Shown one piece after another: positions 11,982 to 44,309 of a stretch of DNA of 64,000 bases. The notes beneath the pieces are model-generated. The model searched no databases, was not told the DNA's origin, and was given only the letters and a program-made list of their open reading frames with translations. Position 1 is the stretch's first letter. Each line of letters opens with the position of its first letter. The stretch covers positions 28,164 through 92,163 of IMG/VR virus record IMGVR_UViG_3300023301_001182; one strand, written 5' to 3'. Origin of the DNA: a virus. The translations under genes were made by a program, and so were the position numbers.

Positions 11982-14900
11982 CTATCCACATTTACTTGAA
12001 CCACAATCTAGGCATCTTGAACACCCTTCTTCAAATATTACATTATTACTGCCACATGAGCTACATGTAGTAGAAGATTTTGAACCATTTGGAATAAATG
12101 TTTTTAATACCTTTGCTATTGCAAAATTAAATGAGAATAAACTACCACTAGTTTTATTTAGGTCATCTACTATATAATTAATACCTCGTCCATGTCTTAA
12201 TGAACCTGATATTAATCTAGTAATTATTTCTTGCTCTTCGTTCATTTTACCAGTAATAATACGATGTCTACTATTATCACCTTCTCCAAGAAATACATAA
12301 TTACCACTACCTTCTTTTAATATAGAACCTTTACCTACTTTAGTGCCACCTAAATAAGCAAAGACTTCATAAGGTTTATCATCCATTAATCCAACAAATA
12401 CACTATACTTTTTATCACCAGCAGCAGTAATAAACGCTTCACCTGTTACTTCTTTAGGGCGTTTTATACTATTATTAGTTGAAAATGTATCATTTTTAGA
12501 ATTATCAGTTATTAGAACTCCACTTCTAGAACCATCTCTGTAAACAGTGATTCCTTTAGTTCCTTTTTCCCAAGCCATTTTATAGATTTGAGAAACAGTT
12601 TCTTCTGATATATCTTTTGGTAAATTTATTGTAGATGAAATACTATGTGAAATATACTTTTGAATAGTAGATTGCACATTTACTCTATCTTCCCATTTAA
12701 TATCATTTGCTGTACATCCATACCAAGGAGACGTTTTAAAGAAATTATCTGTATCTATTTTTGAATACCATGATTCAAAAGATTCATTTGGATATTTATT
12801 TTTATATTTAATAAATAACCAATCTTGAAATTTAGGATGTAATACTTGAAATTCTTGCCAAGTATCTCCCATTTCATCAGTAAAATCTACCTTAACACCT
12901 TCATTATTAGCATTAATCTTTTTTCTACGTGTATAAAATGGTTGAAATAATGGTTCAATTCCAGATGTAGTTTGTGTCATTAAACTTACTGTACCAGTCG
13001 GAGCGCATTTGTTATGTATAAGTTCTTTATCTTATACTCTCCTCTTTTCAAAGGAGTATCGGACTATATCATCATCCTTAGTAGGATGCTGGATTTTCGT
13101 GGGAGAGATTATTGTTAGGCTCACTCTCCTAGTCTCTGAACCTTCTAAACTCTTTTAACCTAAGTTTAGCTTGGCTGCTGATTAACATGTTTTACCACAT
13201 TATTACAAAATTGTATAAATTCTTTGTTATTTAAAATGTTTTTCATAATATTAACTTTTTTATCTAACCATTGAATATTACCTTCAATATAACCTTTAGA
13301 AGAGTCTATTCTATCTAATGATGCATTAAATATATTATAATTAATATTTCTATTTCCATTTTTAATATTTGTTATTGGTATTGTTTTATCTTCTGGTCTT
13401 AATATAATTTTTTTACCAGATAATGCACATTTATTATTTTGTTTATTAAATATATTCCATGCGTAATCTAAAGATATATCAAAAACTATATTTCTTCTTT
13501 TAGCACTATATTTATAATGATTAAATAACATCTTAGATAAATCACCTATTCCCTGATGTGAAGGAGAAAAGTCTTTTGAATGCATTTTATTTAATTTAAT
13601 ATTATTTAAATATTTTTCTTTATTAGAACATACTTTACATTGTCCTACTTGATTTGATTTTAATATATCAGCCCTAATAAATTTTTCATTTCCACATTTA
13701 CATTTAACTAACCAATAAGACTTTCTGTCTTTTGTAGTAGCTATATTAGTAGAAATTACTGTATAATTTTTAAATATTTTACCAATAACTGGGATTTCTT
13801 TTTTATGTGCCCCACACACAAGAATAAATTTATTATTTTTCATAAGTGTACCGTTTGGTGCAAATATACGAAAAATAAGTTTAATTACCAAACATTTTAG
13901 TAATTATTTTATAATAATTTTTGTGATAAAATTTAGCTTTCCAGCAATTTATCCAATTTTTCAAAGTATATTACTATACTAAGCCGCCATTGACGGTGCT
14001 CCATGATACATTTCTACGTCCAAAAGTCATCATCCTAAAAGCTTGTTTAGGAAATTCACTTAATATAAAATTATAAAAATCATTACCACCTTTATCTTCA
14101 TATGAACCACCTTCATTTGGATACTCTAACTTGTTATCCCATCCTTCAAATGTTCCTCTTAAAATAGCTAGGTCGATAGTACAATCTAGCTCAGATTCCA
14201 TTTTAGTGTACATTATAGAGTCTATAATCTTATTTGCTTCCTCTGAACCATACTTTAAACCTAATGCTGCTAGAACGTCTCCTAGAGCTGTAAAACCTAA
14301 ACCAGTTCTTCTACTTGATAAAGCAGTTAATCTTATTTTCTTCCATAATGCCATTTCTGTAAACTTCAGCATCATTGGTTCTGGGTCCATTTCAATCTTT
14401 GCAATGATTCTATCAATATGTTCAATGTCTAAATCAATAAGATTATCACTAAGTCTCATTGCTTCATAGTTGATTTCATAAAAATCATCAAGATTAAATT
14501 GTGCCTCTTTAGTAAATGGTTTCTCTACAAAGTTATACAAGTTCACTGCTATTAATCTACATGCGTCATAAGGTTGCATTCCTATTTCACTGCATGGATT
14601 TGTAGTAACTTGTTTAAATTGTGGATAAACTCCATCTGGACTGTAATTAACCATCTTATCCCAGTACATAAGTCCTGGTTCTGCTACACTATGTGCAGAT
14701 TTAATGATTTCATCCCAATATTCCTTAGCTTTAATCTTTTTAATATATACAGAATTACCTGTATCTCCATCATAAACACTATATGATGTATTATATTTAA
14801 ATGAGTCCCATCTTGGTTGCTTACTGGCTTCTTCTGTAGTAGCCCAATAAGCATTATCAATATTAACAGTTGTAGGAAATCTTAAAATATAATCTTCATC

Positions 14901-15596
14901 AGCTTCTACAGCTTTCATAAACTCATCATTAAGTTTAATAGAGATATTAGCACCTGTTACTTGTGACAAATCTCTTTTCATCTTAATAAAGTCCATAATA
15001 TCAGGATGTCTTACATCCATTGATATCATAAGAGCTCCTCTTCTACCATTCTGTGCAACTTCTCTAGTAGTATTACTAAATCTATGCATAAATGATACAG
15101 CTCCTGTAGAAGTCTTTGCAGCATTACTAGTTGGAGCCATATTAGGACGAAGTGTAGATATATCAATACCTACACCACCTCTTCTTTTTTCTAACTGTGC
15201 AATCTCCTCATCTTTTTGAAATATTCCTCCATATGAATCTTCAGGTTGACCTACAACAAAACAGTTGGAAAGACTGCCTATTGATGAACTACCTAATTGA
15301 GACATTATTGAACCTTGAGGTACTATATACTTAAAATCTTTAAATAGATTATAAATTATACCTTCAATATGTTCTTCTTTAAAGTCTCTATTTACTCCAT
15401 ATTCTGATAAAAATTCTATATTCTTGGAACTTTCTTCACTTTTGTTTTTTAATTCAATCCTAGCAAATTCTTTTGCTAATCTTTTGTGCATATCATCAGG
15501 AGTTTTCTCTCCTTGTAAAGCGTATTTATCTAACCACACTTGAGCAGCTAAATCATCACCTTTAAAATACTCTAATAATTCATCATTCATCTTCAT
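11982..15596 (-). CDS. nrdJ: Class II (adenosylcobalamin) ribonucleotide reductase in two exons (15596..13993 and 13005..11982; about 875 aa spliced)
   Basis: LSNCFV, TNPCSE and DACRL in exon 1; SGIEP, ISSTINL, KGITVYRDGSR and a C-terminal Cys cluster in exon 2. Joining ...AGC ACC GT to C GCT CCG ACT GGT restores STVAPTGTVS in frame. Confidence 0.93.
13166..13843 (-). CDS. Intron-encoded HNH-like homing endonuclease
   Basis: WLVKCKCG, CALSG, ASLDRIDSSKGYIEGNIQW..KKVN. Lies between the P and Q elements and reads through Q (NQQPS*). Likely start is the ATG at 13843, downstream of an internal promoter. Confidence 0.85.
   Translation of the reverse strand: MKNNKFILVCGAHKKEIPVIGKIFKNYTVISTNIATTKDRKSYWLVKCKCGNEKFIRADILKSNQVGQCKVCSNKEKYLNNIKLNKMHSKDFSPSHQGIGDLSKMLFNHYKYSAKRRNIVFDISLDYAWNIFNKQNNKCALSGKKIILRPEDKTIPITNIKNGNRNINYNIFNASLDRIDSSKGYIEGNIQWLDKKVNIMKNILNNKEFIQFCNNVVKHVNQQPS
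13861..13892 (-). promoter_or_regulatory. Bacteroidota-type promoter for the intron endonuclease
   Basis: TTTGGT then TATATTTG (TAnnTTTG), 24 nt start-to-start. Confidence 0.65.
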
Positions 15597-27777: not shown

Positions 27778-28545
27778 TTATTTATTTATAAATATTTGAG
27801 ACCAATCTACTTTTAGTTGTCCTGCCTCATCAGACTTAGCCACTACAATTTCTTTACCTTTTAGATGATCACATCTAGACCCTGATAATAAATTCTCAGA
27901 GGCAATAAAGTTAATTATAGTTTCTTTTTCTTTTCTATAAAGGTATCCTACTGCATCTACTTGAGAACATAAGATTGATGACTGTCTTCCTGTTAGGGCT
28001 AAACCACGTTCATTCATTTCTTTACCTTCTTTTTCAACTAGTTTATCCTTAACATGTCCTAGTAATATTAATGTATCACATACATCTTCTAACTCACTTA
28101 GAACCATACTTAATGCTTTTCTAGTATATCCATATCCTGCTCCATTTGGTAGAGATATAACATCGTCTCCTTGCCAATTACGACCAACACTAGTTTCACG
28201 ATACATTTTACCAGCTAAAGGTAATACAATTTCTTCTAAAGCAGTTACAGTATCTATTGCTAGATATTTATATGTGTAACCTTTTTTAGCTTGATTGCTT
28301 TCCTCTATATCATTAATTAATTCTTTAAGGACTACTATTGGTAGTTTATTTTCCTCTTTAGAAACTTTTAAAACATCGTATTTTAGGGCATCTACAAAAT
28401 GACTCCCACTCTCTAAATCTATAATCAAACAATTATCTAATTCAGACACTACACTGGTTTTACCCATCTTAGGTTGACTAAAAATAACCATTGATTTTGG
28501 ATTTACTCTTGATGCTTTACTCTTTTTACTCGGTAATTCACTCAT
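27778..28545 (-). CDS. AAA_24 / Sak4-like ATPase
   Basis: SQPKMGKT (Walker A), IIDLESG, AIDTVT, LLGH. Confidence 0.85.
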   Translation of the reverse strand: MSELPSKKSKASRVNPKSMVIFSQPKMGKTSVVSELDNCLIIDLESGSHFVDALKYDVLKVSKEENKLPIVVLKELINDIEESNQAKKGYTYKYLAIDTVTALEEIVLPLAGKMYRETSVGRNWQGDDVISLPNGAGYGYTRKALSMVLSELEDVCDTLILLGHVKDKLVEKEGKEMNERGLALTGRQSSILCSQVDAVGYLYRKEKETIINFIASENLLSGSRCDHLKGKEIVVAKSDEAGQLKVDWSQIFINK

Positions 28546-30064: not shown

Positions 30065-33000
30065 TTACCTTCCTGTTGTAGACTCAATGAAATTATAAAC
30101 CTCTTTTATGTTAGCATTATCATAAGGTAAAGGTAGTTCTCTAAAAAAGTTTACAGCTCCATCAAAGAATAGTGGACAAACTGTGCCACCACCACCACTT
30201 CTACCACCAAGTATTTCTAAAAACCTTATATTATCTCTAAAAAAGGTTATATCATATCCTTGGTACTCTCTTATCTCGTGTCTAAACGGACTAAATAGTC
30301 CTATTATAACATTAGCATCCCGTTGAGTTAATTTGCAATCGCCAAGACCATCTAATGAAGGTTTTAATCGACCTACCTTCATATTCTCGACTGATTCTTG
30401 TGCACTTGCTTGTTGTTGAATAACAACTGGAATGTAGTTATATTTATTCCTGAGTCTTAAAAGATAATCTGAAGACAATTTAACAATAGAAGCATGTAAG
30501 CTCATTTTGTGTCCATTTTCTTCTTCTGTAGAAATTAAACCTACATGGTCAATAAAGACCATAACATACTCTTCTGGATCATTAGGTTCATAATAATCAT
30601 CAATCTCTGTTAATGTACCTTTGATATTGATAGTTTTTTTGTACTGTGTCCCATTGGCTTGTGCATAGGAACGGACAAATTTATAAATACCTGTAGGATT
30701 TCTAATATCATCAATGAACTCTACTATTTCTTCAATCTTCTTGAAATATGGTTCATATTTTGCTATTAACTCTAAAATTTTAATATCTAATATTTTATCT
30801 GCTTTAGTACTTCTAAGGTCAGTAGGAGGAATTCTTACCCCTTCTTTAACATATATAATGTTAGAGAATGCTGATAACATTTTCTCCTCCTTAGACATCT
30901 CTAAAGTAAAATAAAATATCTTCAATCTAATGTTTAAAGATTTATCAATTACTTGTTGAATAGTATTATACAAAAATAGCCAATCAGCTATTTGAGTTTT
31001 CAATTTTGTTATTTCTAACGATTACTAAAATATTTCTTATTTTCAAAAAATTTTTTAAGTTCTATACCAAATTCATCAACTCCTCTACGTGGAGCATATA
31101 AACGCCAGTAACTTCCTGTGTAATTAGTAGTAGAATCTCTAACTCTATATACTTGTTTGTTTATATCATTACAAAACATACCAACTAAATTATCAAGTGA
31201 CATTACAGTATTAAAAAACTCTTCATATGTGGCTTTAGGATAATAATTTAAACAGATCCTGTATAAATCTCCCATAGATCTATTGCAATCCTTTCCACAT
31301 TGTTTTCTGTTACTTTTAAGATGATATGTTTTATTACTGTATATATATCTTGATAATAATAATCTTACAAAATTCTTAAAAACTTTAGAATAAATTTTAT
31401 GTTTTGTAATGCCAGCTTTTGAAAGGTATAATATTCCTCTTCCTCTTAATTTTATTTCTATTTTATTAAATTTTTGTTTCATATTTTAGAAATTTAGAAA
31501 GTTAAGTCATTTCTACTTAACTCTATAATTTAATATCAATTTTTAATGAATCAAATAGTTTATCAATATAAGCAGCATCATATTTAGTATCCTTTGTACT
31601 TCTACCATAGTTAAATGTAACAGAATTTACATGACCTGGTATAATTTTACTAGCCCATATAGATATAGATGGCTTTTGACATTTCTCATAAAAGCTATAA
31701 AATATTACTTTATTAATACCACCACATACTCTTGCTCTGAATTTAGTTTCATATAAAGCTTGTAATACCATCTTTTCAGTTGCTCCTTTTTGTTTATAAT
31801 ATTTAAACAAATCATCAAAGCTTCTTCTATCATAGATCCCTTTGTCTTTTTTAAATAGAGTACTTCTAAAATACCTCTTATGATTTACTTTATTTAATAA
31901 ATCTTTTTTTAACTCCTTTAAATTCATCTTTAATTAATTTTTATTTTTATAGTTCGGACTATCTCATCAACCTATCTATGTATTACACATTTACAGTCAT
32001 AATCATGATGTCCTTTTAATGCATCATTATAACATTCTGTACAACATTGTATACCTTCTGTTATAATTGTTGCAATATTATCACAATCTGTACATAGTAT
32101 AGGTTGCCCATTGTTAGTCTCTACGTCCTTTTGAATTTTTGATATTGTATTATCTATAGTTGATTGAAATCTATCATCACAACTATATCCAGCTTTATAA
32201 TAAGCTAAACCTTTCATAATATTTTCAATATTTCTTTTATTCAACTGTGACACGGGATTGCCTTCTTTTTTTTCAGTTTCTACACCGTTTTGTAAAGCAA
32301 GTCTAACTCCTACTGAAACTCCTAGTTTATAATCATCCCACCATTTAGGACTTCCTAAAAATTTAGTTAATCGTTTTACTTCTTTCTCAAGTGATAGCAT
32401 AGGATTGCTTTCTGTTTTTTCCATTATAAATCATCTCTAGTTAAGTTCTTAATATACATCTGTAAATCTCCATTAGGATAACCTACCCTTCTTGCAAAGG
32501 TATGTTTGTATTCAAATCCTAATGTTTTTAGATTGGATCTTAATAAGTGCTCATTTGGAGATACTATTACAAAGACAGCTGTCTGGCCTCTACCATATGT
32601 ATAATCTACTTCTTTATTAATAAGCATTTCCATAGTAAGCCGTTTTAACTTAGCTTTAAATTCATCTAAAGTTGTGTCATCTCCTACATTATTTAATTGA
32701 CATAATGCACAGCATGCTGTTGTTGTTTTTTCCATTATAATGTTTTTTTAAAAAAGGGTTTCCCCGTTAGCTAATTATTTTTAACAAATACTTTTTTAAC
32801 CAAGACTTAGAAGTAAATTCTCCAAGTTTAATTAATTGTTCAATTGTTAAAATTCCTTTTTTCTTTCTTTTTAATATTATTTCTTTTGCTATTCCATCTT
32901 GTTTAAATCTTGCAACATAGCCATCTCTATTTCTGATTTGATATTTAGTAAAATATGTTGCAAAATATTGGAAGCCATAACCATAACCTGTTGGTATTGC

Positions 33001-34775
33001 TACACAAGATATTAATATAAAATATTTTGCTAAATTTTCAACATATAATTTGGATGTTACATTTATTGAAAATGTTACTTTCTGAGCTGCATGTAATACT
33101 TTAGCCACTCTTTCTATAGCTTTAGGTGTACACAGTGATGCAAAACTTGATACTTGATCTAAGTAACAATGTTTACAATTACCAATTGCGTCTTGGTAAA
33201 AAATTGTACTATAATCTGAAAGATACACTTTATATACATCTGTGTCACACATATTTGGAATACAGTCTTCTAGTCTTATATTTATCATTTTTTCTTAATT
33301 AACCCCCATTTCTGGGATTCTGAGTTCAATTACATATTACTATGCAAAGGGGCAAAATCTACCTACTTTCGTTTATATTCCACATAAGACGTAACTCTTA
33401 TATGCGTTTATGATAAATAGTATATATGGTAGGTCTATCCTCAATAACTTTTAAGATATTGGTTATTTTCCACGAGTACTGTACCTGCTTATACTTCTTA
33501 ATACTATTTACTTTAACTGCTATATATTTCTATATAGACTGGACTATATCTTCATCTACTTGAGATGGCTTCCATTTCCAATACCATTAACTTGTATTGT
33601 ACGTGCTCTATTGCACTAGTCTCTGAACGTTACTATTTCTAGTCTTCGCTGCTGATTGTCTTATATAAAAAAGACACTATATTAGTGTCTTAATTATACT
33701 TAGAGTTTCCAGCAATTAAAAAGCTAATCATCTAGATGTCACCATCTAGCGTAGCAATTAAATTGTTATTAATAAATATTGTTTTTTAAATTTTTGTTGT
33801 ACTTTTATTGCATAACTTATACTAGGTCTGTGTGTTTTAAAATATTCAGCACATTCTTTTAAAGAATTAAATTCCATAATTAATTCTCTTGTACTATAAT
33901 CTAATACTTGGACTTTCTTATATAAATATTCCATATTTTTAGTATCTTTTTTATAAGGAGATAATATTTCTTTATAATCATATGACCATAAATAATTACC
34001 TGCTTTTTTATAAGTACCATTAATATATCTACATATAGATGATTTAGAAATATCACACTCAGATGAAGCTTCATTAAGGCTATTATATTTACATATATAT
34101 TCTCCATTTAAAGAGTACTTATATATAACTTTAGTAGCTAATATTATTTCACCTATTTTAATTTTGTATTTCCTTGTATTAGATTGTTTAAGTCTAGACT
34201 CTTTAGGAAGGATATTTCTATCTACTTCTAAAGTAATATTATATAAAGGTTTTAATATATCTATATAAAATTGTTCTCTACTTATTAACTTATTTTCTTC
34301 ACATTTTTCTAATATATAAAAATTAAAGTCATTCTCTGTATTATTATTCCAAGAATTTTGTAATAATATATTACAATGCTTTAATTTTTTTAATGTATAA
34401 AAATGATTATATAACCTAGTTCTAATGTTTTTAGAACTACCTATATATTGTTTACCATTTTTAATATTTATTATGCAGTAAATACCACTGCAGTTATAAT
34501 CTTTTGTTATTTTCTTCATAATTTATATATTTATACAAATATACGAAATTAAATTCAATAATCCTAATTTATAACTGCTAATTTTATAACTTTATTTATT
34601 ATAACTAATTACTATTCGCTGTAATTAAATAATATTTACCTTGCTCAATGCCAGGTAATTCATTTTCAAACCGAGGTAACCCCCATGGTATACAATTAAT
34701 TTGCCCATTAAGTAACCTCTGTCTCTTTTCTATGATATTGTCATAGACTCTTGTATATAAACTTGTTTCTTTCAT
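30065..34775 (-). CDS. dnaB: DnaB-like replicative helicase in three exons (34775..34611, 33369..33361, 31000..30065; about 369 aa spliced)
   Basis: Exon 1 ...IPWGLPRFENELPGIEQGKYYLITANS, micro-exon AAA GTA GGT (KVG), exon 3 KTQIADW...FTLEMS...FIDHV...VIQQQ...QRDANVIIGL. Joining restores Walker A ANSKVGKT in frame. Confidence 0.9.
31015..31482 (-). CDS. Intron cargo ORF 5: basic hypothetical protein, paralog of 31523..31927
   Basis: RSMGDL...FCNDINKQVY; bracketed by an AUUUCUAA/UUAGAAAU stem. Confidence 0.7.
   Translation of the reverse strand: MKQKFNKIEIKLRGRGILYLSKAGITKHKIYSKVFKNFVRLLLSRYIYSNKTYHLKSNRKQCGKDCNRSMGDLYRICLNYYPKATYEEFFNTVMSLDNLVGMFCNDINKQVYRVRDSTTNYTGSYWRLYAPRRGVDEFGIELKKFFENKKYFSNR
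31523..31927 (-). CDS. Intron cargo ORF 4: basic hypothetical protein
   Basis: RSFDDL...VCGGINKVIF; bracketed by a CUAUAA/UUAUAG stem directly after the S element. Confidence 0.7.
   Translation of the reverse strand: MNLKELKKDLLNKVNHKRYFRSTLFKKDKGIYDRRSFDDLFKYYKQKGATEKMVLQALYETKFRARVCGGINKVIFYSFYEKCQKPSISIWASKIIPGHVNSVTFNYGRSTKDTKYDAAYIDKLFDSLKIDIKL
31972..32424 (-). CDS. Intron cargo ORF 3, overlapping the Q, R and P8 core elements; Cys-rich C-terminus
   Basis: 150-aa open frame coupled to the upstream ORF by TAATG; CTDC...CCTEC...CKC. Confidence 0.55.
   Translation of the reverse strand: MEKTESNPMLSLEKEVKRLTKFLGSPKWWDDYKLGVSVGVRLALQNGVETEKKEGNPVSQLNKRNIENIMKGLAYYKAGYSCDDRFQSTIDNTISKIQKDVETNNGQPILCTDCDNIATIITEGIQCCTECYNDALKGHHDYDCKCVIHR
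32424..32735 (-). CDS. Intron cargo ORF 2: hypothetical protein in the P5 loop
   Basis: 103 aa; starts just after the P5 5' strand; LKTLGFEY...LQMYIK segment is only weakly GNAT-like. Confidence 0.65.
   Translation of the reverse strand: MEKTTTACCALCQLNNVGDDTTLDEFKAKLKRLTMEMLINKEVDYTYGRGQTAVFVIVSPNEHLLRSNLKTLGFEYKHTFARRVGYPNGDLQMYIKNLTRDDL
32767..33288 (-). CDS. Intron cargo ORF 1: hypothetical protein in a stem between P3 and P4
   Basis: 173 aa; bracketed by GGUUAAUUA (33304-33296) and UAAUUAGCU (32777-32769). Confidence 0.7.
   Translation of the reverse strand: MINIRLEDCIPNMCDTDVYKVYLSDYSTIFYQDAIGNCKHCYLDQVSSFASLCTPKAIERVAKVLHAAQKVTFSINVTSKLYVENLAKYFILISCVAIPTGYGYGFQYFATYFTKYQIRNRDGYVARFKQDGIAKEIILKRKKKGILTIEQLIKLGEFTSKSWLKKYLLKIIS
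33361..33369 (-). other. 9-nt micro-exon of dnaB encoding K-V-G of Walker A
   Basis: AAAGTAGGT, preceded by the terminal G of intron 1 (33370) and ending in the U of the intron 2 5' splice site. Confidence 0.87.
33758..34519 (-). CDS. Intron-encoded GIY-YIG homing endonuclease with NUMOD1-like C-terminal repeats
   Basis: SGIYCIINIKNGKQYIGSS, REQFYID, YN; two SL(N/K)E(A/C)(S/A)E helix-turn-helix-type repeats. Confidence 0.92.
   Translation of the reverse strand: MKKITKDYNCSGIYCIINIKNGKQYIGSSKNIRTRLYNHFYTLKKLKHCNILLQNSWNNNTENDFNFYILEKCEENKLISREQFYIDILKPLYNITLEVDRNILPKESRLKQSNTRKYKIKIGEIILATKVIYKYSLNGEYICKYNSLNEASSECDISKSSICRYINGTYKKAGNYLWSYDYKEILSPYKKDTKNMEYLYKKVQVLDYSTRELIMEFNSLKECAEYFKTHRPSISYAIKVQQKFKKQYLLITI
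34536..34567 (-). promoter_or_regulatory. Bacteroidota-type promoter inside dnaB intron 1
   Basis: TTAGGA then TATATTTG, 24 nt start-to-start, upstream of the GIY-YIG ATG. Confidence 0.65.
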
Positions 34776-34777
34776 AT

Positions 34778-35386
34778 TTAATTTAATTTTGAAGTCCATT
34801 CATCTCTACTAGGTAATCCTATCTCCTCTATATAAGCAGATAATCTGGATGACTCTTCACGATTGTTCTCTTGTTTAAATATAAAATAATCAGCACGTTG
34901 TAAGAATCTATAATCTCCATGTAAGCTGTCAATATAAATATCAACTGCTTTTAGGATATCATCGAATGTATATTTAGAGTTTTCTTTCATCCATCTTGTA
35001 AGTTTAATTTCACATGACTTTGGACTACCCATAGAACCAGCTTTTAACCCTTTCCATTTGTCTCTAAATAATTCAATTCTACCATCAATCTCTTGATTAA
35101 TAGTTCTTTGTGATCTTTTAGTAGTCTTCTTAGAAGGCTCTAAAGCATCAGGTATTTCTACTGTTAAAAACTCTAATAGTTCTACAGATTTCTCCCTTAA
35201 TATATATTTTGTCTTTTCTTCATCTGTTATAATTTTTATTAGTTTTTCTCTTTGTAATTTTTGTAAGTCTATATTAGCTATATTAACTTCTTTCTCTTCA
35301 AATAAGTTATATAGAAATAAGAGATCTTCTACAGAAATATTGAAATCATTTAGTACAGTAAAATTTAGTACTAAGTTTTTTCTCAT
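34778..35386 (-). CDS. Hypothetical protein, possible replication initiator or helicase loader
   Basis: Directly upstream of dnaB exon 1. The function is inferred from position only. Confidence 0.45.
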   Translation of the reverse strand: MRKNLVLNFTVLNDFNISVEDLLFLYNLFEEKEVNIANIDLQKLQREKLIKIITDEEKTKYILREKSVELLEFLTVEIPDALEPSKKTTKRSQRTINQEIDGRIELFRDKWKGLKAGSMGSPKSCEIKLTRWMKENSKYTFDDILKAVDIYIDSLHGDYRFLQRADYFIFKQENNREESSRLSAYIEEIGLPSRDEWTSKLN

Positions 35387-43907: not shown

Positions 43908-43930
43908 CTCGTTTAGAGTATTGTTATTTG

Positions 43931-44309
43931 TGGACCTGCGCGGAGTCGAACCGCGGTATCCCAACATATTTCATAATAATTCTTATACAGCTTCACGTTT
44001 GTTTAAATTCTTTACGCTAGAGTAGGAACGATTGGATTACAATCGAATCTCCACCACTTGGTTTTTGTAGAACCTAGAAACTAGTGTTGCCTTTGTTTTT
44101 ATTGCTTAGGCTGCAAATGCTAACTCAACAGTTAACTCATCAGAACCTTGTTCTGCAGTTACTGTATTATTAAGTATAGAATGAACCACACTCATGTTAG
44201 CGACGATTTGATCTGTGTTGTTTCCATTTAAGAAAATTCACCTTAGTTTACAGTTATCTCTCTGGCTGTTCATTATTAATCTACATATCAAGGCATTCCA
44301 GTCAAGCCC
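43931..44309 (-). ncRNA. ssrA: tmRNA with predicted 39-aa tag (44225..44106)
   Basis: 5' GGGCUUG pairs with 3' CAGGUCC-A and includes the G3-U70 alanine determinant. T arm CGCGG-UUCGACU-CCGCG. Internal frame ends ...ELAFAA*. Confidence 0.9.

Follow-up and report, generated by a model that had tools for sequence, protein, structure and literature searches.

Two tandem introns interrupt the helicase gene of a crAss-like phage

We analyzed a 64,000-nucleotide (nt) stretch of viral DNA (IMG/VR virus record IMGVR_UViG_3300023301_001182, positions 28,164 to 92,163 of that record; the whole stretch is called the window below). The subject is ORF150, an open reading frame (ORF) of 150 codons that runs through the core of a group I intron in a helicase gene. 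The window is a portion of a 92-kb crAss-like phage record, and Cellulophaga phage phi14:2 (family Steigviridae) is the closest cultured relative of this phage. All genes in the part of the window that holds ORF150 lie on the minus strand. Here the gene for a replicative DnaB-type helicase is found in three pieces, and two tandem introns split its Walker A motif, as follows.

34611 to 34799, minus strand: helicase exon 1, ending ...YYLITANS
33370 to 34610, minus strand: group I intron 1, with a GIY-YIG/NUMOD1 endonuclease ORF (34519 to 33758) and textbook P/Q/R/S elements (33717-33541)
33361 to 33369, minus strand: mini-exon of 9 nt, AAAGTAGGT (K-V-G), part of the helicase Walker A motif
31001 to 33360, minus strand: group I intron 2, host of ORF150, 2,360 nt, running from just past the mini-exon U to the terminal G at 31001
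30065 to 31000, minus strand: helicase exon 3, beginning KTQIADW...

In silico removal of positions 34610-33370 and 33360-31001 yielded a helicase of 377 amino acids (aa) with zero stops and the Walker A sequence ANSKVGKT. Compared with the intact cr108_1 helicase, the joined protein showed 49% identity over its length, and the window junction ITANSKVGKTQIADW aligned to SANSKIGKTQIADD of cr108_1. The boundaries of intron 2 (a slash marks each junction) fell at GGT/AGA between 33361 and 33360 and at TTG/AAA between 31001 and 31000, such that the 5' exon ends in U and the intron in G. RNA splicing appears to be the only sensible reading of this arrangement because the break falls in the G-K-[ST] of the P-loop, in an essential gene of a viable phage. 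We infer from the sequence that splicing of intron 2 rebuilds the helicase P-loop.

The helicase gene of phi14:2 carries an unannotated intron of 2,616 nt at the site of window intron 2 (NC_021806.1:13150-15765, equal to L001:385-3000), and here too a U closes the 5' exon and a G closes the intron. When this intron was excised in silico, a 369-aa helicase resulted, with the sequence ANSKVGKSQ and zero stops; the expected splice junction is GTGGGT/AAATCACAA. In terms of the annotated genes, g024 corresponds to exon 1, g027 to the core-threaded ORF, and g029 to a truncated exon 2, and the record labels the intron and helicase pieces as hypothetical proteins and a truncated DnaB. Tandem introns flanking a 9-nt mini-exon were also detected in phage contigs L005 and L010 (AAAGTGGGT and AAAATTGGT), so this arrangement appears to be inherited or spreading as a unit.

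Intron 2 holds five ORFs, named for their lengths in amino acids (ORF173, ORF103, ORF150, ORF134, and ORF155), none of which matched a Pfam or PHROG family. ORF134 lies in the P9 loop, and ORF155 is flanked by P9.1 (AGUUAAGUAGAAAUGACUUAACU) on one side and, on the other, by the hairpin (GUUAGAAAUAAC) closest to the 3' splice site (31015-31927, minus strand).

ORF150 is threaded through the intron core

The elements of intron 2 that bear on ORF150 are listed below, all on the minus strand. The positions of P, Q, R, and S come from exact motif searches.

33321 to 33324: P3 5' strand CTCA, followed by the hairpin CCCA-GAAA-TGGG (33316-33305)
33304-33297 and 32776-32769: stem formed by GGTTAATT and AATTAGCT, with ORF173 in its loop
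32768-32758: P element, AACGGGGAAAC
32753 to 32768: P4 5' strand ACGGG (32767-32763) and P5 5' strand CCTTT (32757-32753)
32424 to 32735: ORF103, in the P5 loop, flanked by a 17-nt direct repeat, TTATAATGGAAAAAACA (32740-32724 and 32429-32413)
31972 to 32424: core-threaded ORF150 (ORF listing), ATG start, 150 aa, TAG at 31974-31972
32116 to 32265: functional module, comprising P5' GAAGG (32265-32261), P4' CCCGT (32256-32252), P6 GTC (32251-32249) and GAC (32127-32125), cassette D, and R
32262-32251: Q element, GGCAATCCCGTG
32127-32115: R element, GACGTAGAGACTA
32124-32116: R core, GTAGAGACT, which holds the P7 5' strand
32100 to 32110: P3' TGGG (32110-32107) and P8 5' strand CAACCTA (32106-32100), both within ORF150, from the covariation tables
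31956 to 31974: P8 3' strand TAGGTTG (31974-31968, with the stop codon inside), J8/7, and P7 3' strand
31965-31956: S element, GAGATAGTCC, which holds the P7 3' strand

ORF150 begins with MEKTESNPMLSL and ends with CKCVIHR. Its ATG is located in the expanded P5 loop, and its stop overlaps P8: the P8 3' strand UAGGUUG (31974-31968) opens with the TAG triplet and pairs with CAACCUA (32106-32100), forming a helix backed by compensatory changes across relatives. Between start and stop, the frame covers P5', P4' (Q), P6, the P7 5' strand (R), P3', and both the 5' and 3' strands of P8. Upstream, the stop of ORF103 overlaps the start of ORF150 (TAATG). The initial annotation of this DNA had described a 150-codon frame at 31972 to 32424 crossing Q, R, and both P8 strands and stopping inside the P8 3' strand, with a Q-like and an R-like sequence ahead of the intact pair. 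That observation was confirmed as a whole: each of the four motifs was recovered in place by exact search, and the peptides ESNPM..GVETE and EGNPV..DVETN were found in the translation.

Given the 28% G+C content of the window, in which 8.3% of codons, all frames counted, are stops, the probability that a given stretch of 150 codons is open is ∼2 × 10^-6. Chance is therefore not a plausible source of ORF150. Recoding of its TAG was considered and set aside; no suppressor tRNA was detected in the window, and TAG closes 9 of 60 long ORFs.

Covariation across 27 introns defines the core

The assignment of the intron 2 core rests on our own comparative analysis and not on an Rfam model. To gather the family, viral contigs were scanned with three separate patterns, one each for S, Q, and R; together, the scans returned 27 distinct introns. 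All have TAACGGGGAAAC, AATCCCGTG, GTAGAGACT, and GAGAYAGTCC in the correct order, and at least 12 share the helicase insertion site. The P4 pairing ACGGG/CCCGU is invariant in the family, and the elements follow the order P-Q-R-S. At the P7 pair R+9/S+4, 18 members have A-U and 9 have G-C, with 0 mismatches. P8, which is CAACCUA/UAGGUUG in the window, shows the compensatory variants GUACCUG/CAGGUAU, UAUCCUG/UAGGAUA, GAACC/GGUUC, and AAACC/GGUUU, and P5 varies from UCUUU/AAAGA to UCCUU/AAGGA, CCAUU/AAUGG, and CCUUU/AAAGG. P5, P6, and P8 are hairpins.

The 5' strand of P3 consists of the four bases ahead of a conserved GAAU in the 5' region, which pair with the bases right after the P7 5' strand. 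Five combinations were observed (UUCC/GGAA, CUCA/UGAG, CUCU/GGAG, CACC/GGUG, and CUCA/UGGG). P3 was fully paired in 10 of 12 members; one of the four pairs fails in L010 and two fail in L036. Two other placements of the P3 5' strand, adjoining P4 (UUAGCU/AGC) or ∼30 nt upstream (UUGU/ACAA), were rejected: neither covaries, whereas CUCA/UGAG does.

Within the working module of the window, CCCGU forms 5 of 5 pairs with ACGGG, and GAGACUA pairs with UAGUCC, followed by P3' UGGG and the P8 5' strand CAACCUA. P6 is GUC/GAC, extended by the flanking sequences UUGAAU/AUUCAA, and its second pair is U-A versus C-G in the family. The segment from P8' through P7' to P9 shows 78 to 88% identity with many phage group I introns already known, including one annotated as Intron_gpI, and a search of the window for the 21-nt P8'-P7' string gave a single occurrence (0 expected). 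Two hairpins stand between the P3 and P4 5' strands (33324-32769, minus strand): CCCA-GAAA-UGGG and an 8-bp stem, GGUUAAUU/AAUUAGCU, with ORF173 in its loop. The latter stem covaries in L015, L022, and L025. The P3-P4 interval is an unusual site for group I intron insertions.

The threaded frame is kept open across the family

In the compact member L006, the core alone encodes a 26-aa peptide, MNKKDNPVPSLEKHGVETNNEKPINK, from an AUG in L5. Its P5', P4', and P6 strands (AAAGAC-AAUCCCGUG-CCGUC) are read as KDNPVPS; its P6', P7, P3', and P8 strands (ACGGU-GUAGAGACU-AACAAUGAG-AAACCU) are read as HGVETNNEKP; and the stop is the UAG of UAGGUU. In other members, this frame continues through inserts in the P6 and P8 loops, and the core strands recur in the peptide as KDNPVPSL (P5'/P4') and NGVETNxEQP (J6/7 through P7 and P3' to the P8 5' strand). 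The conserved P8'-J8/7-P7' string holds stops in all three frames, so the ORF ends there in whatever frame it leaves the P8 loop.

Insert lengths followed the triplet periodicity of a coding sequence. Among the 27 unique members, the Q-to-R distance took 14 different lengths, from 30 to 201 nt, all of them multiples of 3. P6-loop inserts of at least 60 nt were stop-free in the ORF frame in 24 of 25 cases, compared with 1 and 0 of 25 in the other two frames, and of the 21 P8-loop inserts, 18 were open in the ORF frame (3 and 1 in the others). An ATG was present 5 to 7 codons ahead of Q in 13 members, and the remainder have longer N-terminal extensions. The initial annotation had named a lack of frame conservation in related introns as a refuting result; instead, the frame proved to be conserved in about 27 of them.

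Codon usage was scored as a per-codon log-likelihood ratio (LLR) of coding frame versus off-frame, using our own script trained on the long ORFs of the window. ORF150 scored 0.58 in frame and −1.09 and −1.69 out of frame, compared with 0.59 ± 0.22 for the other genes of the phage and about −1.4 for off-frames. Each cassette of ORF150, as we call the variable inserts in the P6 and P8 loops, scored between 0.5 and 0.75. In five homologous pairs, differences at the three codon positions numbered 46, 26, and 48, position 2 being the least variable. In L032 (positions 883 to 1548), a GNAT domain in the P5 loop is fused in frame upstream of the core ORF (28.4 bits against a cut-off of 20.7). Together, these features suggest that ORF150 is a real small-protein gene, and from them we infer its translation.

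One contig, L035, carries two family introns, with Q/R sets ∼1.6 kb apart. The upstream intron has P6 GGCGC/GCGCU instead of GCCGU/ACGGU, and its Q-to-R distance is 129 nt, a multiple of 3.

A second Q-R module of different origin lies upstream

The N-terminal part of ORF150 spans a second pair of Q- and R-like sequences, again on the minus strand.

32408-32393: Q-like sequence, GCAATCCTATGCTATC (exact motif search)
32286-32273: R-like sequence, GGTGTAGAAACTGA (exact motif search)
32275 to 32406: relic module, comprising Q' AATCCTATG (32406-32398), cassette B, and R' GTAGAAACT (32283-32275)

Q' precedes Q by 147 nt, or 49 codons, in frame. Q' (CCUAU) has one internal mismatch and one wobble against P, and in R' (GAAACUG) the P7 G-C pair beside the bulged A has lost its G; judging by other group I introns, we take this pair to be the guanosine-site pair. 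No P3' or P8 follows R'. Judging from these changes, the Q'-R' module is disabled as RNA; it is kept in frame, presumably because it is now part of the protein. Cassette B reads as coding sequence as clearly as the rest of the ORF (LLR of 0.70).

The initial annotation had called this segment a degenerate duplicate Q-R module. A degenerate module is indeed there, but it is not a copy of the working one. Cassettes B (EKEVKRLTKFLGSPKWWDDYKLGVSVGVRLALQ) and D (NKRNIENIMKGLAYYKAGYSCDDRFQSTIDNTISKIQK) aligned with a score of −6 against a shuffle mean of −5.7 and have no detectable similarity. Self-duplication of the intron's own Q-R segment was therefore rejected: the B-D alignment does not exceed the shuffles, and separate homologues of B and D occur elsewhere.

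Relatives recovered by protein searches begin with the same MEKTESNPMLSL as ORF150 but combine their cassettes otherwise. (Two phmmer matches, P0005 and P0007, were discarded as repeat proteins matching low-complexity stretches.) We write each module as [Q cassette R]; P0002, P0004, P0006, and P0008 were compared as proteins and L047 as DNA. The arrangements were as follows.

Window: [Q' B R'][Q D R]
P0002: [Q' A R'][Q D R], sharing the Cys-rich tail of the window
P0003/L047: [Q' A R'][Q B R]
P0004: [Q' A' R'][Q C R]

Cassette B is the sole cassette of P0008 (47% identity over 55 aa), and cassette D is the sole cassette of the single-module P0006 (60% identity over 63 aa); the flanks are canonical in each. 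Metagenome contig L047, which supplies the DNA of a P0003-like intron, has cassette B between canonical Q and R; its ORF stops just past R. A separate LAGLIDADG_2 endonuclease gene (L047:301-942, E value of 2 × 10^-33) occupies P8, where the window has the Cys-rich tail, and the window's ORF134 follows S in L047.

Stacking was seen a second, independent time in L019, where the N-terminal extension of the ORF is homologous to a P6-loop cassette of L044 (E value of 5 × 10^-12). Cassettes of the P6 and P8 loops also assort independently of each other: L003/L004, L015/L022, L011/L031, and L027/L037 share P6-loop cassettes, and their tails differ. The 17-nt repeat around ORF103 duplicates the start region of the core ORF and shows the same sort of cassette insertion at the ORF start. 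Because these cassettes turn up singly or in different orders in relatives, the data point to recombination at the conserved Q and R strands. The better reading of Q'-R' would be an unrelated Q-cassette-R module stacked by recombination between family members.

A shared-strand model and its alternatives

Taking the core anatomy together with the coding signals, we consider it likely that ORF150 is a translated small-protein gene in a td/Twort-like group I intron, that it carries a stacked relic module, and that its translation and the folding of the ribozyme are mutually exclusive. The intron would belong to a family found in marine and environmental crAss-like phages, in which one frame extends from an AUG in the P5 loop to P8'/J8-7/P7' and fast-evolving peptide cassettes occupy the P6 and P8 loops. 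The conserved core strands would double as recombination sites, through which cassettes are swapped between introns. In the window lineage, a second Q-cassette-R module would have been stacked upstream of the working one and then decayed as RNA, such that it no longer competes for P4 and P7, while being retained as an N-terminal extension of the protein. On the RNA, the intron would fold and splice to give helicase mRNA, and ORF150 would be translated from the P5-loop AUG, probably coupled to ORF103. A ribosome on ORF150 would occupy one strand of P5, P4, P6, P7, P3, and P8 and would have to melt those helices. Because the ribosome would hold core strands, no single RNA molecule should be able to fold as a ribozyme while ORF150 is being translated. 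Splicing would come first, for example with translation from the excised intron, or else the two would compete. The suggestion in the initial annotation that ribosomes would unfold the core is a reasonable one and matches the td/I-TevI precedent; the interpretation given there is, overall, partly supported.

Several results weigh against this account. The intron 2 P1 is only ∼3 bp (GGU/GCC). The Rfam group I model RF00028 found no match in the window at the gathering threshold or at an E value of ≤10, intron 1 included, or in the compact relatives at an E value of ≤1. As a positive control, two introns of Staphylococcus phage 110 reached 106 and 69 bits with the same model; the failure here is probably because the two P3-P4 hairpins and the large loop inserts break the model. 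Pooled dN/dS was 0.43 in frame versus 0.48 in frame +1, which indicates weak amino acid constraint and is a weak discriminator of frames; the evidence from triplet lengths and open frames far outweighs that from sequence conservation. The stop comes early in four family members (L017, L042, L043, and L044), and the members share descent, such that the counts given above overstate independence. As to the product, ORF150 had no Pfam or PHROG match and no known domain, its AlphaFold2 model had five helices and no confident fold (mean predicted local distance difference test [pLDDT] score of 51.6), and a protein atlas comparison returned only sub-threshold rows.

When 10 family ORFs were compared with Pfam and PHROG, nine had no match and the tenth had the GNAT domain. 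With no match in either database, ORF150 was not identified as a homing endonuclease, and none was recognizable in intron 2 of the window. ORF150 had no match by tblastn against the phage collection or in a related-locus search of viral contigs, nor did the window core by blastn against phages at 1e-3. In the structure model, predicted helical hairpins of ORF150 match the cassettes. Cys-rich CxC/CxxC tails recur in the window, phi14:2, L003, L012, L014, L022, and L045.

An extension of the shared-strand model, which we put forward tentatively, is that the bare-core mini-ORF (26 aa in L006) serves as a platform for both expression and recombination. In-frame inserts in the P6 and P8 loops would be expressed as fusions, and the core strands would act as linker peptides and crossover sites, letting phage introns exchange and stack cassettes for small proteins. 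Older modules would be pushed into the P5 loop as relics, and ribosomes moving through the core would automatically switch the intron between splicing and cargo expression.

The alternative that best withstands the data, though we regard it as unlikely, is that Q'/R' acts as a regulatory decoy, a weak alternative partner for P (and S) that toggles the intron between splicing-competent and misfolded states, with ribosomes passing from ORF103 to ORF150 deciding the outcome. Q' still forms 4 of 5 pairs with P, one wobble counted, and the module lies immediately after the coupled stop of ORF103 and start of ORF150, ahead of the true Q. Moreover, the Q' peptide ESNP(M/I)LSL is nearly unchanged in P0002, P0003, and P0004 while the following cassette changes. 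However, conservation in a few close relatives is explicable by shared descent alone. R' lacks the P7 G-C pair, P3', and the P8 5' strand, such that no alternative core can close, and the single-module relatives L037, P0006, and P0008 do without Q'/R' altogether.

It is quite unlikely that the product of ORF150 is an intron-specific helper, a maturase or RNA chaperone acting on the ribozyme that carries its gene, although such a role would account for the locking of the ORF to the core. In its favor are the physical link between ORF and core and the Cys-rich tails, which could be zinc knuckles, but the cassettes are unrelated among members with near-identical cores. L006 encodes only 26 aa, L027 is nearly tail-less, and no similarity to known maturases was found.

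We hold it to be very unlikely that ORF150 is open yet untranslated, as a by-product of A/U-rich structured RNA or a dead endonuclease remnant. Such a reading would accommodate the lack of a known domain or confident fold and a dN/dS that hardly separates frame 0 from frame +1. It sits poorly with P6-loop inserts open in one frame only (24 of 25), Q-to-R lengths that are without exception multiples of 3, gene-like codon usage in every segment, conserved starts, and the in-frame GNAT fusion of L032, and with cassettes B and D retaining 47 to 60% aa identity in distant introns.

Finally, the relic nested intron (decayed twintron) in the P5 loop that the initial annotation had offered as one origin of Q'-R' is hardly credible and was rejected: two group I motifs do occur, correctly ordered and at a spacing (123 nt) like that of family P6 modules, within a loop of the outer intron, but the segment is Q-loop-R only, exactly in frame with the flanking coding sequence, with no P1/internal guide sequence, P3, P3', P8, S, P9, terminal G, or splice sites of its own and no second P or S in the window, and its cassette is the working P6 cassette of L047, while the same flanks hold other cassettes in P0002 to P0004.

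Relation to known introns

Overlap of ORF and ribozyme core is already known; its extent and modularity here are new, and our analysis adds a relic module stacked upstream and evidence that cassettes have been shuffled. Under the name "core creep," overlaps of 9 to 81 nt have been tabulated at the ends of homing endonuclease ORFs (Edgell, Chalamcharla & Belfort 2011, PMC3073962). Examples are the td intron of T4, with I-TevI, and the large-subunit rDNA intron of Synechococcus lividus, with its LAGLIDADG ORF (PMC3073962). For td/I-TevI, ribosome occupancy of core strands is cited there as leading to a splicing defect (PMC3073962, citing Gibb & Edgell 2010). The window resembles these cases in having an intron-borne ORF that reaches into P6, P7, P3, and P8 strands and in its dual-coding sequence. 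It differs in that a nonendonuclease ORF runs from its start in L5 through one strand each of P5, P4, P6, P7, and P3 and both strands of P8, and in that the pattern is conserved in a family, with variable cassettes in two loops and a second stacked module.

Among the introns compared, that of phi14:2 shares with the window the helicase site (ANSKVG/K), the P/Q/R/S sequences, and the frame from Q through R to the P8' UAG. It has a single module, as do 25 other members, and lacks the upstream intron 1. Twort-like and other group I introns of phages of Gram-positive bacteria, such as that of Staphylococcus phage 110 annotated as Intron_gpI, have a near-identical P7 3'-P9.0-P9 segment (GAUAUAGUCC GAAC CUAUAUGG..) and the order P, Q, R, S. 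In contrast to the window family, which RF00028 left unscored, the Staphylococcus-type introns are compact and mostly ORF-free, have P3 beside P4, and score 69 to 106 bits. Giant cargo introns such as ND5-717 of corallimorpharian mitochondria (PMC6545197) likewise carry several unrelated genes in group I intron loops. However, those are organellar, with host genes in one loop, whereas the window has five small phage ORFs over four loops, one of them core-threaded. Within crAss-like phages, dense introns were described in the Delta and Zeta groups, and the alpha-gamma groups were said to be without such insertions (Yutin et al. 2021). Among the papers searched, we found none describing a phi14:2 helicase intron or this threaded ORF.

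If ORF150 is translated as proposed, the intron would be an extreme and evolutionarily conserved case of double use, in which one sequence gives both a catalytic RNA and a protein, nearly the whole 3' half of the core is translated, and invariant core strands surface in the protein as fixed peptide motifs. It would offer a natural system for a ribozyme and a ribosome sharing one RNA and for introns gaining nonendonuclease cargo, and it may show short conserved RNA strands driving cassette exchange between co-infecting phages. For annotation, helicase genes of marine crAss-like phages, that of the cultured phi14:2 included, are mis-annotated as several small genes. With its host, phi14:2 makes a tractable pair for testing these proposals.

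Other elements in the window

A third group I-like intron was located at 12981-13973 (minus strand). It shares identical P, Q, and R motifs with intron 1 (AATTGCTGGAAA at 13949, AATCAGCAGC at 13183, and GTTCAGAGACTAG at 13141). This intron holds a 241-aa ORF (13166-13891) and lies between the large ORFs 13974-15596 and 11982-12980, which look like halves of a ribonucleotide reductase. The window also contains a transfer-messenger RNA (tmRNA) gene at 43928-44309 (minus strand), detected by Rfam at 51.5 bits and assigned the tag peptide AEQGSDELTVELAFAA by ARAGORN; the related contig L015 has a tmRNA as well.

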